NCBI GenBank assembly: GCA_024614665.1
Contig: GCA_024614665.1_4861.1
Reading direction: 5' to 3' (one strand)
Origin: a phage
DNA length: 64,000 nt
The notes under the pieces were generated by a model that searched no databases, had not been told where the DNA came from, and was given only the letters and a program-made list of their open reading frames with translations. Shown here piece by piece: positions 5,503-51,222 of this stretch. Position numbers and translations under genes: made by a program. Numbering within the stretch: the first letter of the stretch is position 1; every line of letters starts with the position of its first letter.

Positions 5503-6021
5503 TTAACGCTTCAGATAGATAACGTTATGGTTTTCGTATTTCGCATCTACCCAGGAAAATTCCCAGTAGTGGCGAGGCCGATCAGCAATTTTCATGTCCA
5601 GTTCCAGGATACCATCTAAAGGTACCTGTCTGAGCACTTCTACGATGCTTTGCAGCTCGTTACGAGGACGGTCGTGGATTAACCCCAGATAACGCTCCAA
5701 ACGCTCAGGCGTCGCTACAGTGCGAATATGAGTACGTTTATCGTCATCGTGTAAGTAGAGGAAGTTCGGGGTGCGAGGGACGTACCAGTGCCAGGTACCG
5801 ATGTACGGGCCAGGCTGATAATCAGACAGTTGTTTGATTGCATTCAATACCGACGAACAACGGAAATACCAGATGTCCCATTCATCACGAGGGAACAGTT
5901 CCGCGACTTTCACTTTCAGTGGGTCGATACTAATATCCCCCGCAGCCAATACTTCTGGGGCAACGCCAGATTCTAAAACGTTACGTTCCCGTTTGGTGTA
6001 CAGGTTCATGGTAATATTCAC
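5503..6021 (-). CDS. hypothetical protein, 172 aa
   Basis: ORF; GTG start at 6019-6021 with TAAGGAG 8 nt upstream (alternative ATG at 6009). Confidence 0.55.
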   Translation of the reverse strand: MNITMNLYTKRERNVLESGVAPEVLAAGDISIDPLKVKVAELFPRDEWDIWYFRCSSVLNAIKQLSDYQPGPYIGTWHWYVPRTPNFLYLHDDDKRTHIRTVATPERLERYLGLIHDRPRNELQSIVEVLRQVPLDGILELDMKIADRPRHYWEFSWVDAKYENHNVIYLKR

Positions 6022-6709: not shown

Positions 6710-6782
6710 TTTAATTGCTCCTTAATACATGACATAAGCTCTGATTGAAACGTAAATTTCAGAGGTTCACTGAGATAACATC

Positions 6783-6800
6783 TATCTGAAATAAAATAAA
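6783..6800 (-). promoter_or_regulatory. class-2 promoter-like motif (mRNA sense TTTCAGATAGATGTTATC)
   Basis: Related to class 1 (AGATA.AT.TTA.C) but without the conserved leader; upstream of 6377..6709. Confidence 0.45.
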
Positions 6801-15509: not shown

Positions 15510-15528
15510 AATAACATCTATCTGAAAA
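15510..15528 (-). promoter_or_regulatory. class-2 promoter-like motif
   Basis: mRNA sense TTTTCAGATAGATGTTATT; upstream of small basic protein gene. Confidence 0.45.
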
Positions 15529-49132: not shown

Positions 49133-49993
49133 CTACGGTTTATAATCAACTTCGTTGATCTTACCGCAAGCCGGACAAGCAATGTTCATTGTCTGCGAAG
49201 TGTAGCGATGTGTTCTCGGTACCGTTGCGACATGATTGCGGTTACAGCCGGAACACGTCCAACCGACCACTGGTGCCTTCGATTGTTTCGGGGCAGGAGT
49301 GTCTTCTTTTAACAATGCGACTACCGCGTGAAATTTACGAAGTTCTGCGTTAACATGCGCTTCCCAGTCGGCGTCCAAACGCGCCGTGAACCAACGTTGA
49401 ATCTTCTGGCCAAGGCCGTCTTGATTTTCTTCTTCATGGGACATCACAAACTTGAGATTTGCGCGACCCCACTGCACAACGTTCTCTACTTTAATCCCGT
49501 CTACGGTGTCGCTGATTGGCGTATAGTTAAAAGTTGGATAGGTGAGATAACAAGCTTCAGCTGTTGCAAAGACCGTATTGCCTTCAAACAGCGCCATGGC
49601 CTCATCGCCCTTAGCATCCTTCTGTGCGGCTTCCAATCGTGGGCAATGGAAACCTTCAAGTTGCTGGATTTTGGTCGTTAGCGCATTGATACCCTGCAGC
49701 ACAGCGATACGCTTTTTGCTGTCTGTAATGGTTGCCATTACCTTGCACAACGCGCGCGAGATAGCGCTATACATTGACGTTTTGCGGTTTTCATCGAGGA
49801 AACGCTCTTGCTGCTCCAGGTCGTAAGAAGACAGGCCGTAGCTCTGCCCTTCGACCAACACGACGTAAGTACGACGTTTGTCGCGGTCCAGCTGGACAAT
49901 GGCCGCATCGGTTAACGGATCGCTAGCCAATACTTCGTGGTCGGGAGGTAGGGGGAAATCTGAACTTTTGATGAAATCAGTAATGCTGTACAT
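49133..49993 (-). CDS. hypothetical protein with C-terminal zinc ribbon, 286 aa
   Basis: CSGCNRNH ... CPACG near C-terminus; hairpin terminator 49098..49123. Confidence 0.55.
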   Translation of the reverse strand: MYSITDFIKSSDFPLPPDHEVLASDPLTDAAIVQLDRDKRRTYVVLVEGQSYGLSSYDLEQQERFLDENRKTSMYSAISRALCKVMATITDSKKRIAVLQGINALTTKIQQLEGFHCPRLEAAQKDAKGDEAMALFEGNTVFATAEACYLTYPTFNYTPISDTVDGIKVENVVQWGRANLKFVMSHEEENQDGLGQKIQRWFTARLDADWEAHVNAELRKFHAVVALLKEDTPAPKQSKAPVVGWTCSGCNRNHVATVPRTHRYTSQTMNIACPACGKINEVDYKP

Positions 49994-49995
49994 TT

Positions 49996-50418
49996 TTAGT
50001 CCTTAAGAGAGTTAATAAAGTCATCTAAACTAATATCACGGAATGGGAAGTAAACACCTTCAAGCGGAATCGTGTAGTGTTCACTAATGGCACGTTGCCA
50101 ATCCAGAACAGTTGCAGGGTAGTTCACAACCTCAAAGTTAGGATGCGTAATTGGCGGAATTGCGTTGTAAACATAGCCGTTAATATTTTTCGATGGGAAC
50201 GCTGCACGGAACTTCGGCTCCATGTAGAACATTTCCTCTTTTACTTCCTGGCCTTCCCAGAAACGATAACCGCCCTTACCGTCAGGAATATAAATCGCCT
50301 TGTCACGGGGTATAGGGGAATCCTTGGATAGCGGAACAAATCGTCCGTACTGGTCAAGGACCATCCAGTCGGTGTCATTCTTTAAATACTTTTGGAGCTT
50401 CTCATTAATCATTTTCAT
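49996..50418 (-). CDS. hypothetical protein, about 140 aa
   Basis: ATG at 50416-50418 with AAGGAA SD. Confidence 0.5.
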   Translation of the reverse strand: MKMINEKLQKYLKNDTDWMVLDQYGRFVPLSKDSPIPRDKAIYIPDGKGGYRFWEGQEVKEEMFYMEPKFRAAFPSKNINGYVYNAIPPITHPNFEVVNYPATVLDWQRAISEHYTIPLEGVYFPFRDISLDDFINSLKD

Positions 50419-50440
50419 GTTCCTTAGGCAAAAAATAATA

Positions 50441-50459
50441 CCACCCGTAGGTGGTATTA
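50441..50459 (-). terminator. hairpin terminator
   Basis: ATACCACC-CGTAG-GTGGTAT downstream of 50471..50659. Confidence 0.5.
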
Positions 50460-50470
50460 AATTAGCTATA

Positions 50471-50659
50471 CTACTTCTTCCCGAGTTCCCCACGGAACTT
50501 CGCCAGCTCTTCTTTCCAGTCCGGCTTCGGTAGTGCGCTTTTCGGCCCCACGATAAACGTACGTTCTGAGGTTTGCGGATTCACCTCTACCGTTTCGTTA
50601 TCTTCCACTTCGCGAAGCATGATTCCGTTTTTACCATCGTAATTAACTAAAACACCCAT
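50471..50659 (-). CDS. hypothetical small protein, 62 aa
   Basis: TAATG overlap with upstream gene; hairpin terminator downstream. Confidence 0.45.
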   Translation of the reverse strand: MGVLVNYDGKNGIMLREVEDNETVEVNPQTSERTFIVGPKSALPKPDWKEELAKFRGELGKK

Positions 50660-50841
50660 TAGTAAATCTCCTGCTGCATTGGAAATACATTACCTGTCGG
50701 TGAGACAAGTAAAACTTGCGCGGTAACGTGAACGATTTCTTCTTCGTCCTGACGACGAACACTGTTAGTGAGATTATCCCACTCACGTTTAACACGCGGG
50801 TGAGATAAGAACTCGGCAAACTGCGCATCAGAAAAGTCCAT
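50659..50841 (-). CDS. hypothetical small protein, 60 aa
   Basis: ATG overlaps stop of the upstream membrane micro-protein (TAATG). Confidence 0.45.
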   Translation of the reverse strand: MDFSDAQFAEFLSHPRVKREWDNLTNSVRRQDEEEIVHVTAQVLLVSPTGNVFPMQQEIY

Positions 50842-50984
50842 TAGCCGCGACCTGTACACATGGCAACAGAGTTACCGTTATCGATGCACTTATTGTAATC
50901 TTGAGTTACAGTGATAGACAGTACCGCGAAAGCAACAACAGCAACGATGGCAAAGATGGCACGTTTATGGTTACGAGTTAACAT
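50841..50984 (-). CDS. small membrane protein, 47 aa (MLTRNHKRAIFAIVAVVAFAVLSITVTQDYNKCIDNGNSVAMCTGRG)
   Basis: First gene after class-1 promoter and conserved leader (AAAGGAGTATTGCC before ATG); one TM helix; not in ORF track. Confidence 0.5.
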   Translation of the reverse strand: MLTRNHKRAIFAIVAVVAFAVLSITVTQDYNKCIDNGNSVAMCTGRG

Positions 50985-51034
50985 GGCAATACTCCTTTAG
51001 ATTAATAGTCGATTGAGTTGATAGATTGTCTTCT

Positions 51035-51060
51035 ATCACCTAGGTAATATATATCTGAAA
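51035..51060 (-). promoter_or_regulatory. class-1 promoter-like motif
   Basis: Plus-strand ATCACCTAGGTAATATATATCTGAAA; upstream of small membrane gene. Confidence 0.55.
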
Positions 51061-51078: not shown

Positions 51079-51196
51079 CACCCTCTATAACGCTCTCAAA
51101 CGCGTTTTGAGAGCTTTTATCACTATAGAGGGTCGTTCTACCGTTAGAGTGGCTTTAGAAGGTTGTGAGTGCGTTTAGAGGGCTAAAATAAAGAGA
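51079..51196. promoter_or_regulatory. structured non-coding element: nested 9-bp inverted repeats followed by four TTAGAG(G)G-like direct repeats
   Basis: CCCTCTATA (51082-51090) pairs with TATAGAGGG (51124-51132); inner GCTCTCAAA (51092-51100) pairs with TTTGAGAGC (51106-51114); TAGAG repeats at about 51126, 51145, 51156, 51176. Confidence 0.45.
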
Positions 51197-51222
51197 CCTG
51201 GTCTCACAAGGAGACCAGGCAC
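51197..51222 (-). terminator. hairpin terminator
   Basis: CCTGGTCTC-ACAAG-GAGACCAGG then U-rich tract; downstream of 51227..52024. Confidence 0.55.

Follow-up and report, generated by a model that had tools for sequence, protein, structure and literature searches.

The 64,000-nucleotide stretch of phage DNA analyzed here (contig GCA_024614665.1_4861.1 of the GenBank assembly GCA_024614665.1; hereinafter, the window) contains a compact unit of three small genes, denoted A, B, and C, the first of which encodes a 47-amino-acid (aa) protein, gp66. Comparison of this locus with its relatives indicates that gp66 is an early mini-protein that faces the periplasm, is shared throughout a phage clade, carries a sharply delimited Cys-loop motif, and lacks any characterized relative, and it is this combination of features that appears noteworthy. 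The overall layout of the unit is well supported by the comparative evidence: the virion RNA polymerase reads an early operon in which a leader, protected by a 5' stem-loop, precedes three packed cistrons, and the first of these encodes a bitopic protein. Units of this kind are the norm in the early regions of phiKZ-like phages, and the three open reading frames (ORFs) are already present in GenBank as hypothetical proteins. On balance, we lean towards the view that the tethered C-terminal loop of gp66 recognizes a specific partner on the periplasmic side of the inner membrane, and, judging by analogy, the role of this protein most likely lies in takeover or immunity directed at the envelope.

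Over 1.4 kb around the locus, identity amounts to 99.0% with Proteus phage 7 and to 98.3% with Salmonella phage SPN3US, and close matches to this region were found in 39 jumbo-phage records, each of about 240 kb. The window comes from an SPN3US-like Seoulvirus, a genus that belongs among the phiKZ-related, nucleus-forming jumbo phages (PMC13282480). Relative to the SPN3US record, the window is reverse-complemented, and therefore genes A, B, and C, which are SPN3US_0066, 0067, and 0068 (gp66, gp67, and gp68, all annotated as "hypothetical protein" in SPN3US), lie on the minus strand (Table 1). Literature searches yielded neither a study of SPN3US gp66-68 nor a transcriptome of this phage. The original prediction, made from the letters of the window, remarked that the first gene falls below the cutoff of the ORF track; gene A was indeed missed by size, but this reflects a size threshold and nothing else, given that the gene is annotated in SPN3US and most of its relatives. 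In Salmonella phage JN03, all three genes are unannotated, and so is a 45-aa homolog of gene A in Cronobacter phage CR5 (NC_021531, approximately positions 5847-5981); both gaps are due to ORF size cut-offs. In the records LR535901-LR535917 (several SPFM assemblies), the locus aligns only as 3-22 short tblastn/megablast pieces, a pattern that indicates frameshift-ridden assemblies rather than true gene loss.

In a tblastn search, 63 phage records proved to contain gene A at the syntenic position, compared to 46 for gene B and 41 for gene C, likewise syntenic, and each of the three genes matches one PHROG family of unknown function (Table 1). Codon comparison of diverged homologs gave median ratios of nonsynonymous to synonymous differences (pN/pS) of 0.49, 0.33, and 0.49 for A, B, and C, respectively, with pS of 0.5-0.9, that is, near saturation. 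Because the nonsynonymous differences are far below the near-saturated synonymous ones, and in view of the PHROG families and the syntenic homologs, the three ORFs are real genes evolving under purifying selection. The gene A family comprises about 32 clusters at 90% identity, all of 45-51 aa, and is represented in Seoulvirus, Machinavirus, Wellingtonvirus, and Erskinevirus, along with a diverged 45-aa form (…GYEQCRANG[HY]S..MTCN[KR]) at the syntenic site in Derbicusvirus. In IMG/VR, gene A is found on 12 contigs, all from jumbo phages and 150-250 kb long. A scan of one genome per species across 185,579 bacterial and archaeal species produced no genuine homolog of gene A; the single match, in an Undibacterium metagenome-assembled genome and out of frame inside a 751-aa gene, was rejected as a chance similarity. 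For two diverged members of the family, P0030 and P0032, the context is limited to short contigs.

In every lineage, gene A is located downstream of the same early promoter, always inside the early operon. The description of the operon in the original prediction as being led by the 47-aa gene holds for the SPN3US lineage, the only one in which gene A is the first cistron, but not for the others: in 15 of the 16 related loci checked, 1-4 cistrons intervene, with three or four cistrons between the early promoter and gene A in Derbicusvirus. Genes B and C are absent in Machinavirus and Derbicusvirus, where gene A occurs; in the phages Huxley and pEa_SNUABM_6, a terminator directly follows gene A; and B and C are distributed among phages independently of A. 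Gene A is the evolutionary core of the operon and, since it occurs without genes B and C, these are not obligate partners or antidotes of gp66. A toxin-antitoxin pairing of A with B or C was considered and rejected because gene A is found alone.

The topology signals, motifs, and Pfam matches of gp66 discussed below refer to 33 members of the family. In the window protein, a hydrophobic stretch of 19 residues (mean Kyte-Doolittle hydropathy 2.67) is flanked by an N-terminal segment with a net charge of +3 and a C-terminal segment with a net charge of 0. All 33 members share this arrangement, namely, an N-terminus of 6-9 residues with a net charge of +2 to +4, a hydrophobic 19-mer with a mean hydropathy of 1.8-2.9, and a near-neutral C-terminal tail of 20-23 residues with a net charge of -1 to +2, in agreement with the earlier claim that the 47-aa protein contains a single transmembrane (TM) segment. 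By the positive-inside rule, applied to the charged N-terminal flank, gp66 is predicted to be a bitopic, N-in/C-out signal-anchor protein of the inner membrane. The conserved part of the protein lies beyond the membrane span, at the very C-terminus, where the motif D29-Y-x-x-C33-x-x-N-G-N-S-x-x-x-C43-T-G-R-G of the window protein takes the family-wide form D-Y-x-x-C-x-x-N-G-[NH]-S-x-x-x-C-T-G-R-[GS], with C33, G37, S39, C43, T44, G45, and R46 invariant. The amino acid sequence of the motif is invariant while its codons vary synonymously, and pN/pS is 0.22 for the C-terminal 19 residues vs 0.65 for the N-terminus and TM combined.

In the AlphaFold2 model obtained with the family alignment (pLDDT 90), gp66 consists of a helix (residues 4-35), a turn (36-39, N-G-N-S), and a second helix (40-44), with one Cys on each helix. 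With its Cys residues placed in this way, the structure looks like a helix-turn-helix hairpin stapled by a putative C33-C43 disulfide, a bond that would be possible only on the periplasmic side. Given that selection acts on the loop rather than on the span, that the motif remains constant in phages with hosts from Salmonella to Erwinia and Cronobacter, and that the gene is limited to one phage clade, the loop, rather than the membrane anchor, is likely to be the working part of the protein.

Arguably, the hydrophobic stretch could instead be a cleavable signal peptide (a lipoprotein signal in some members), in which case the active species would be a free or lipid-anchored, disulfide-cyclized peptide of approximately 20-27 residues residing in the periplasm or the outer membrane, where it might, for instance, block a receptor as T5 Llp does. 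The succession of n-region, h-region, and polar region fits a signal peptide, and many members have small residues at positions -3 and -1; furthermore, 11 of the 33 members contain a lipobox-like motif, [AV][ALT][AG]C, inside the hydrophobic stretch, several have possible signal-peptidase sites, and UniRef labels the Kwan protein "Lipoprotein". However, with 18-19 residues, the unbroken hydrophobic run exceeds the usual length of a cleavable signal, neither the cleavage sites nor the lipobox Cys is conserved across the family, and, in the AlphaFold2 model, the helix of the TM runs on without a break into the motif. The lipoprotein was rejected as the general form of gp66 because the lipobox is not conserved, and we regard a cleaved or lipidated free peptide as unlikely.

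The original prediction also implied that the 47-aa protein is toxic or depolarizes the membrane, that is, that gp66 might be a Hok/TisB-like or thionin-like membrane-damaging peptide that depolarizes or permeabilizes the inner membrane for early host shut-off. There is indeed a general likeness to the Hok/Gef type I toxins, which are of similar size (about 50 aa) and likewise combine a basic N-terminus and one TM located near it with a Cys-containing C-terminal region in the periplasm; in addition, faint, sub-threshold matches to Pfam Thionin (PF00321) were obtained for 2 of the 33 members (best E 0.056), and crambin and viscotoxins account for 4 of the 12 hits of a Foldseek search of the gp66 model against the PDB, all of which are non-significant (for these four, 21-23 residues, root-mean-square deviation 0.8-2.0 Å, E 6-9). 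Nevertheless, none of the 33 members matches Pfam Hok_Gef (PF01848) even at E <= 10, and the conservation pattern, in which the TM is the least conserved part of the protein and the tail is nearly invariant, is the opposite of that expected of a pore or a depolarizer. Moreover, a giant phage with a long cycle needs an energized host, no antidote partner is conserved with gene A, which is found in the absence of B and C, and thionins contain 3-4 disulfides but lack a TM. At gene A, no sign of antisense-RNA or mok-like control was detected, either as an antisense promoter-like site at the gene start or as an Rfam match; the only sigma-70-like match on the plus strand (50412-50439) lies outside gene A. 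Membrane damage is therefore not favored as the function of gp66 and appears rather improbable to us.

The interpretation of gp66 as a membrane-tethered, loop-presenting protein that acts very early in infection draws on the promoter of the operon. The element called a class-1 promoter in the original prediction is, by its sequence, an early promoter of the phiKZ group, recognized by the virion RNA polymerase. The 17-mer TTTCAGATATATATTAC (51060..51044, minus strand) is present in the window in 5 exact copies, all on the minus (coding) strand in the sense orientation, with 7 matches at <=3 mismatches compared to 0.19 expected; a Shine-Dalgarno (SD) sequence with an ATG lies 57-65 nt downstream of every exact copy, and, in every relative checked, spanning five genera and one metagenomic contig, the homologous operon likewise stands behind this 17-mer. 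The form found in the window, TTTCAGATATATATTACCTAGGTG, fits the core of the phiKZ-group early promoters, TATATTAC, together with the flanks of the promoters of 201phi2-1, OBP, and N1M2. The published motifs include TATATTAC of phiKZ and TTTRARR-BTATATTACDWHDGTG of 201phi2-1, as well as those of OBP and N1M2 (PMC7058600), and the early promoters of this group are AT-rich motifs centered near -10 that are recognized by the virion RNA polymerase (PMC7598289). Because the published early motifs center near -10, transcription is predicted to start near position 51039. Promoters of this class are expected to initiate about 10 nt past the motif center, at an early stage of infection, and in a manner resistant to rifampicin. 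The correspondence with the published early units of phiKZ, 201phi2-1, OBP, and N1M2 extends beyond the core, which is embedded in an AT-rich block with TTTCA-RR before it and ..GTG after it (PMC7058600): the promoters occur in multiple copies per genome, each heading a cluster of small genes of unknown function, and hairpin terminators separate the units. The SPN3US-like promoters are known here from their sequence. A variant 17-mer, TTTCAGATAGATGTTAT, is present in the window as two identical copies on the minus strand (6791..6775 and 15527..15511), which may be early promoters of lower strength or belong to a second class of promoters.

A hairpin in the same register within the first ~30 transcribed bases was identified at 18 of the 20 distinct promoter copies from the window and the relatives (z < -1 for these 18; mean z = -2.35), with different stems, such as GAGAGTT/AACTCTC, GATAGA/TCTATC, GAACGA/TCGTT, and others. 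Conservation of the register while the stem sequences differ suggests that the 5' stem-loop is a selected, mRNA-stabilizing or polymerase-related structure. Owing to the recurrence of this hairpin at nearly all promoter copies, the promoter and the leader together are a genuine, conserved early-transcript architecture, so that, with the repeated 17-mer, the match to the phiKZ group, and the SD AAGGAG, the earlier claim of a promoter and leader in front of the 47-aa gene is borne out.

The ribosome-binding region at the end of the leader is unstructured and includes a conserved element, (A/T)TCGACYAT, that is found at many early-operon cistrons directly 5' of the SD, 12-22 nt before the start codon. 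Six cistrons of the window, all on the minus strand, are preceded by this type of element (at 2648, 21793, 23289, 51012, and 58705, plus 59516, as CCGACTAT), as is the gene A homolog in 12 of the 12 loci of Seoulvirus, Machinavirus, Wellingtonvirus, and Erskinevirus; it is conserved in these four genera but absent in Derbicusvirus. The element is kept where gene A is the second to fourth cistron, that is, independently of promoter adjacency; it might enhance translation, serve as a site of regulation or processing, or act as an internal promoter. The fixed leader of 57-65 nt with its 5' stem-loop and the TCGACYAT element before the SD is not described in the papers on the phiKZ group that we examined. 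The nearby homolog of gp70 (286 aa, 49133-49993, minus strand) has a C-terminal, zinc-ribbon-like CxxC…CxxC tail with a weak match to PHROG 6417, "translational regulator" (E 0.002), and may be relevant to this translation-initiation element.

The promoter also bears on another possibility, namely, that gp66 is a lysis-timing component, such as a holin, an antiholin resembling T4 RI, or a spanin. A small single-TM phage protein with a periplasmic domain would suit such a role, some members contain a lipobox-like sequence, as do o-spanins, and T4 RI is likewise made early and acts through its periplasmic domain. Still, gene A is located behind an early promoter in every lineage; there is no endolysin or other lysis gene within ~7 kb on either side, the neighbors being hypothetical, structural, and helicase genes; gp66 has neither the charged cytoplasmic C-terminal tail of holins nor an adjacent or embedded i-spanin partner; and PHROG 8574 carries no lysis annotation. 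Because of the early promoter combined with the lack of lysis neighbors, a role in lysis is disfavored, and we assign it quite a low probability.

In the scenario that we favor, where the timing of transcription, the topology, the disulfide, the functional coupling of the genes, and the function of gp66 are predicted rather than observed, the virion-packaged phage RNA polymerase would initiate at the TTTCAGATATATATTAC promoter and produce a leader of ~55 nt, with the stabilizing 5' stem-loop first and the open ribosome-binding region last. The three small genes would be translated in tight succession, with one base shared by each stop and the next start, followed by a terminator consisting of a hairpin and a U-run. 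The gp66 protein would span the inner membrane, its short basic N-terminus remaining cytoplasmic and the last ~20 residues reaching into the periplasm, where C33 and C43 would be oxidized, stapling a short helix-turn-helix at the membrane surface; this tethered loop, not the span, would then, very early in infection, bind a specific partner located in the periplasm or at the membrane surface. Under this scenario, gp67 and gp68 would be small cytoplasmic early proteins that are not obligate partners of gp66. Two versions appear to fit best: gp66 could exclude superinfecting relatives by disturbing their injection apparatus, in the manner of T4 Imm and Sp and T5 Llp, or it could silence a sensor or a division protein of the host envelope, much as the 47-aa MgrB silences PhoQ. 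Superinfection exclusion specifically can be suggested only tentatively, as one candidate function.

The precedents for the two versions are instructive in both their likenesses and their differences. MgrB is a 47-aa enterobacterial inner-membrane regulator of PhoQ, with a basic N-terminus, an N-in/C-out TM, and two essential periplasmic Cys residues. The putative analogy with gp66 is close in that both proteins combine the same length, a basic N-terminus, a single TM, and a two-Cys periplasmic mini-domain that would act on a membrane protein; gp66 differs in the spacing of the Cys residues and in its motif, shows no sequence similarity to MgrB, with none of the 33 members matching Pfam MgrB (PF13998) at E <= 10, and is phage-encoded and early. 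The T4 proteins Imm and Sp and T5 Llp are early, small, anchored in the inner membrane or exported, and block superinfection from the periplasmic side; Llp contains a disulfide and is lipid-anchored, and the lipobox-bearing subset of the gp66 family resembles it in this respect. Again, no homology was detected, and gp66 is much smaller, with an ectodomain of ~20 residues.

Several considerations weigh against the favored scenario. Both the superinfection-exclusion and the sensor-control versions are drawn by analogy only, there being no sequence or fold match of gp66 to Imm, Sp, Llp, or MgrB. The genetics and proteomics papers on SPN3US do not mention gp66-68. The lipobox-like LAC[SA] sequences in some members imply that the loop might be released or lipid-anchored rather than TM-tethered, and the terminator that closes the operon may be inefficient, with the ribosome-binding site (RBS) of the next gene abutting it.

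More general searches were in line with the isolation of this family. No significant match for A, B, or C was found in Pfam, NCBIfam, PADLOC, or among PDB sequences, and none of the three matches known defense or superinfection-exclusion families (PADLOC, Pfam Imm). A profile search against 1.84 billion representatives added only P0046, P0047, and P0044 to the gp66 family search, whereas another candidate, P0045, was rejected as a low-complexity artifact. P0044 is a 381-aa, multi-TM metagenomic protein with four tandem AY[NDS]xCIGNG[NA][ST]xxQC repeats (positions 448-1593 of SRR21621036_403000, an uninformative contig of 1.9 kb). Its repeats align with the phage Cys-loop at an hhalign probability of 84% over 19 columns, and it scores 20.2 bits against Pfam Thionin, below the gathering score of 23.6. 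The close resemblance of these repeats to the phage loop suggests that the Cys-loop is an autonomous mini-fold that is also used outside phages. As for the other two genes, the AlphaFold2 model of the gene B product consists of two helices and a beta-hairpin (pLDDT 75, pTM 0.29), and a Foldseek search of this model against viral structures gave no match at E <= 0.001; gp67 and gp68 are small soluble proteins without detectable relatives outside these phages.

The recurrence of thionins among the sub-threshold signals calls for a comment. In crambin, the segment F-N-V-C16-R-L-P-G-T-P-E-A-L-C26 has a C-x9-C spacing, and the Cys16-Cys26 disulfide links the two helices of this protein. The local motif [FY]-N-x-C-[RI]-x-x-G-x5-C is a likeness between gp66 and crambin, with the identical C-x9-C spacing, although thionins are secreted eukaryotic peptides with 3-4 disulfides, beta-strands, and no TM anchor, whereas only two Cys residues are conserved in gp66, and the resemblance, which spans ~22 residues, is non-significant by every signal. 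We take this similarity to lend some support to the stapled-hairpin geometry, not to membership in the thionin family. A far-fetched option is that the loop is a thionin-like helical hairpin that binds lipid headgroups on the outer face of the inner membrane, remodeling or marking the membrane very early; its target could be, for instance, the early-infection vesicle, a compartment derived from the inner membrane that initially encloses the injected genome and the lumen of which is topologically periplasmic. Should this prove true, gp66 would be the first phage-encoded membrane factor of the early-infection vesicle, and a thionin-type motif would, unexpectedly, have turned up in a bacterial virus.

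Within the operon, both gene junctions are TAATG, with one base shared between the gene A stop (50843-50841) and the gene B ATG (50841-50839) and, likewise, between the gene B stop (50661-50659) and the gene C ATG (50659-50657), exactly as originally described; in the relatives, the junctions are TAATG or TAAGATG. A GTG-extended, 66-aa version of gene B in the ORF list was rejected because the homologs begin with M[DT]FSD. These overlaps are real yet routine in an SPN3US-type genome, given that 7 of the 59 same-strand junctions in 50 kb of SPN3US are one-base overlaps. Translational coupling of the cistrons is plausible from the geometry of the junctions. Gene C has its own strong SD, AGGAG, located 8 nt from the ATG, inside gene B, whereas gene B has only a weak one, AGGT, at 9 nt, and for this reason gene B may depend on coupling more than gene C does. 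The notion that these small ORFs are chance frames in a non-coding leader or spacer, for which their very short length and the lack of annotation in JN03 could be invoked, is effectively refuted by in-frame conservation across up to five genera with pN well below the near-saturated pS, by the invariance of the motif under synonymous codon variation, and by the presence of an SD and a PHROG family for each of the three.

The three-gene unit is followed by a strong hairpin with a U-run (a 10-bp stem, a 4-nt loop, and UUUUUU; -17.4 kcal/mol, z = -4.8), so that a terminator-like structure is present as originally claimed. The RBS of the next gene, the gp69 homolog that starts at 50413, lies ~15 nt past the U-run (50413-50436), which implies that either termination is partial or leaky, or an unrecognized promoter overlaps the terminator. 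In SPAsTU, Huxley, and pEa_SNUABM_6, the gp69-like gene is likewise preceded by an equivalent hairpin with a U-run and an RBS, irrespective of the gene located upstream. The boundary of the micro-operon is, accordingly, a structural one, its functional role being putative.

Table 1. Coordinates of the features of the gp66 locus, listed in the direction of transcription
Feature	Coordinates	Strand	Basis
Terminator of the upstream 265-aa gene (SPN3US gp65 homolog)	51186..51220	minus	Stem 51220..51196 and U-rich tail
phiKZ-group early (virion RNA polymerase) promoter, TTTCAGATATATATTACCTAGGTGA	51036..51060	minus	Recurrence of the 17-mer and match to published motifs
5'-terminal leader stem-loop (GAUAGA/UCUAUC)	51019..51038	minus	Fold and recurrence at promoter copies
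Translation-initiation region: TCGACTAT (51012..51005) and SD AAGGAG (50997..50992)	50992..51012	minus	Recurrence at related loci
Gene A (gp66; PHROG 8574), 47-aa single-pass membrane protein, predicted N-in/C-out	50841..50984	minus	
Gene B (gp67; PHROG 14868), 60-aa soluble protein	50659..50841	minus	ATG overlaps gene A stop (TAATG)
Gene C (gp68; PHROG 16804), 62-aa soluble protein	50471..50659	minus	ATG overlaps gene B stop (TAATG)
Intrinsic terminator-like hairpin and U-run closing the three-gene unit	50430..50459	minus	Stem 50459..50436, then TTTTTT

On the upstream side, the transcription unit is bounded by the terminator of the gp65 homolog (-17.5 kcal/mol, z = -5.7), which is separated from the 17-mer promoter by a spacer of 135 nt. 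The spacer contains a long imperfect palindrome (51080-51133, minus strand; ACCCTCTATAG…GCTCTCAAAACGCGTTTGAGAGC…TATAGAGGGT), with an inner hairpin at 51092-51114 and a fold z of -3.2, preceded by 3-4 CTCTAAA-like direct repeats (51125-51180, minus strand); an Rfam search of the region, including the palindrome, gave no match. Given that relatives hold 1-3 additional genes at the position of the palindrome, it may be a remnant or else a regulatory or terminator structure.

The nucleus-forming jumbo phages have been studied intensively, and yet almost nothing is known about the action of their earliest products at the envelope; gp66 is among the few small early proteins that are conserved across five genera, the hosts of which include Salmonella, Escherichia, Proteus, Erwinia, and Cronobacter. 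For the annotation of these genomes, the combination of the promoter, the 5' stem-loop, and the TCGACYAT leader provides a usable definition of early transcription units. The motif of gp66 is tiny and can be synthesized and mutated, so that it could become a tractable handle on superinfection exclusion, envelope takeover, or the biology of the early vesicle. If the 20-residue loop does bind a conserved envelope target of enterobacteria, it would also be relevant to the field of antibacterial peptides.

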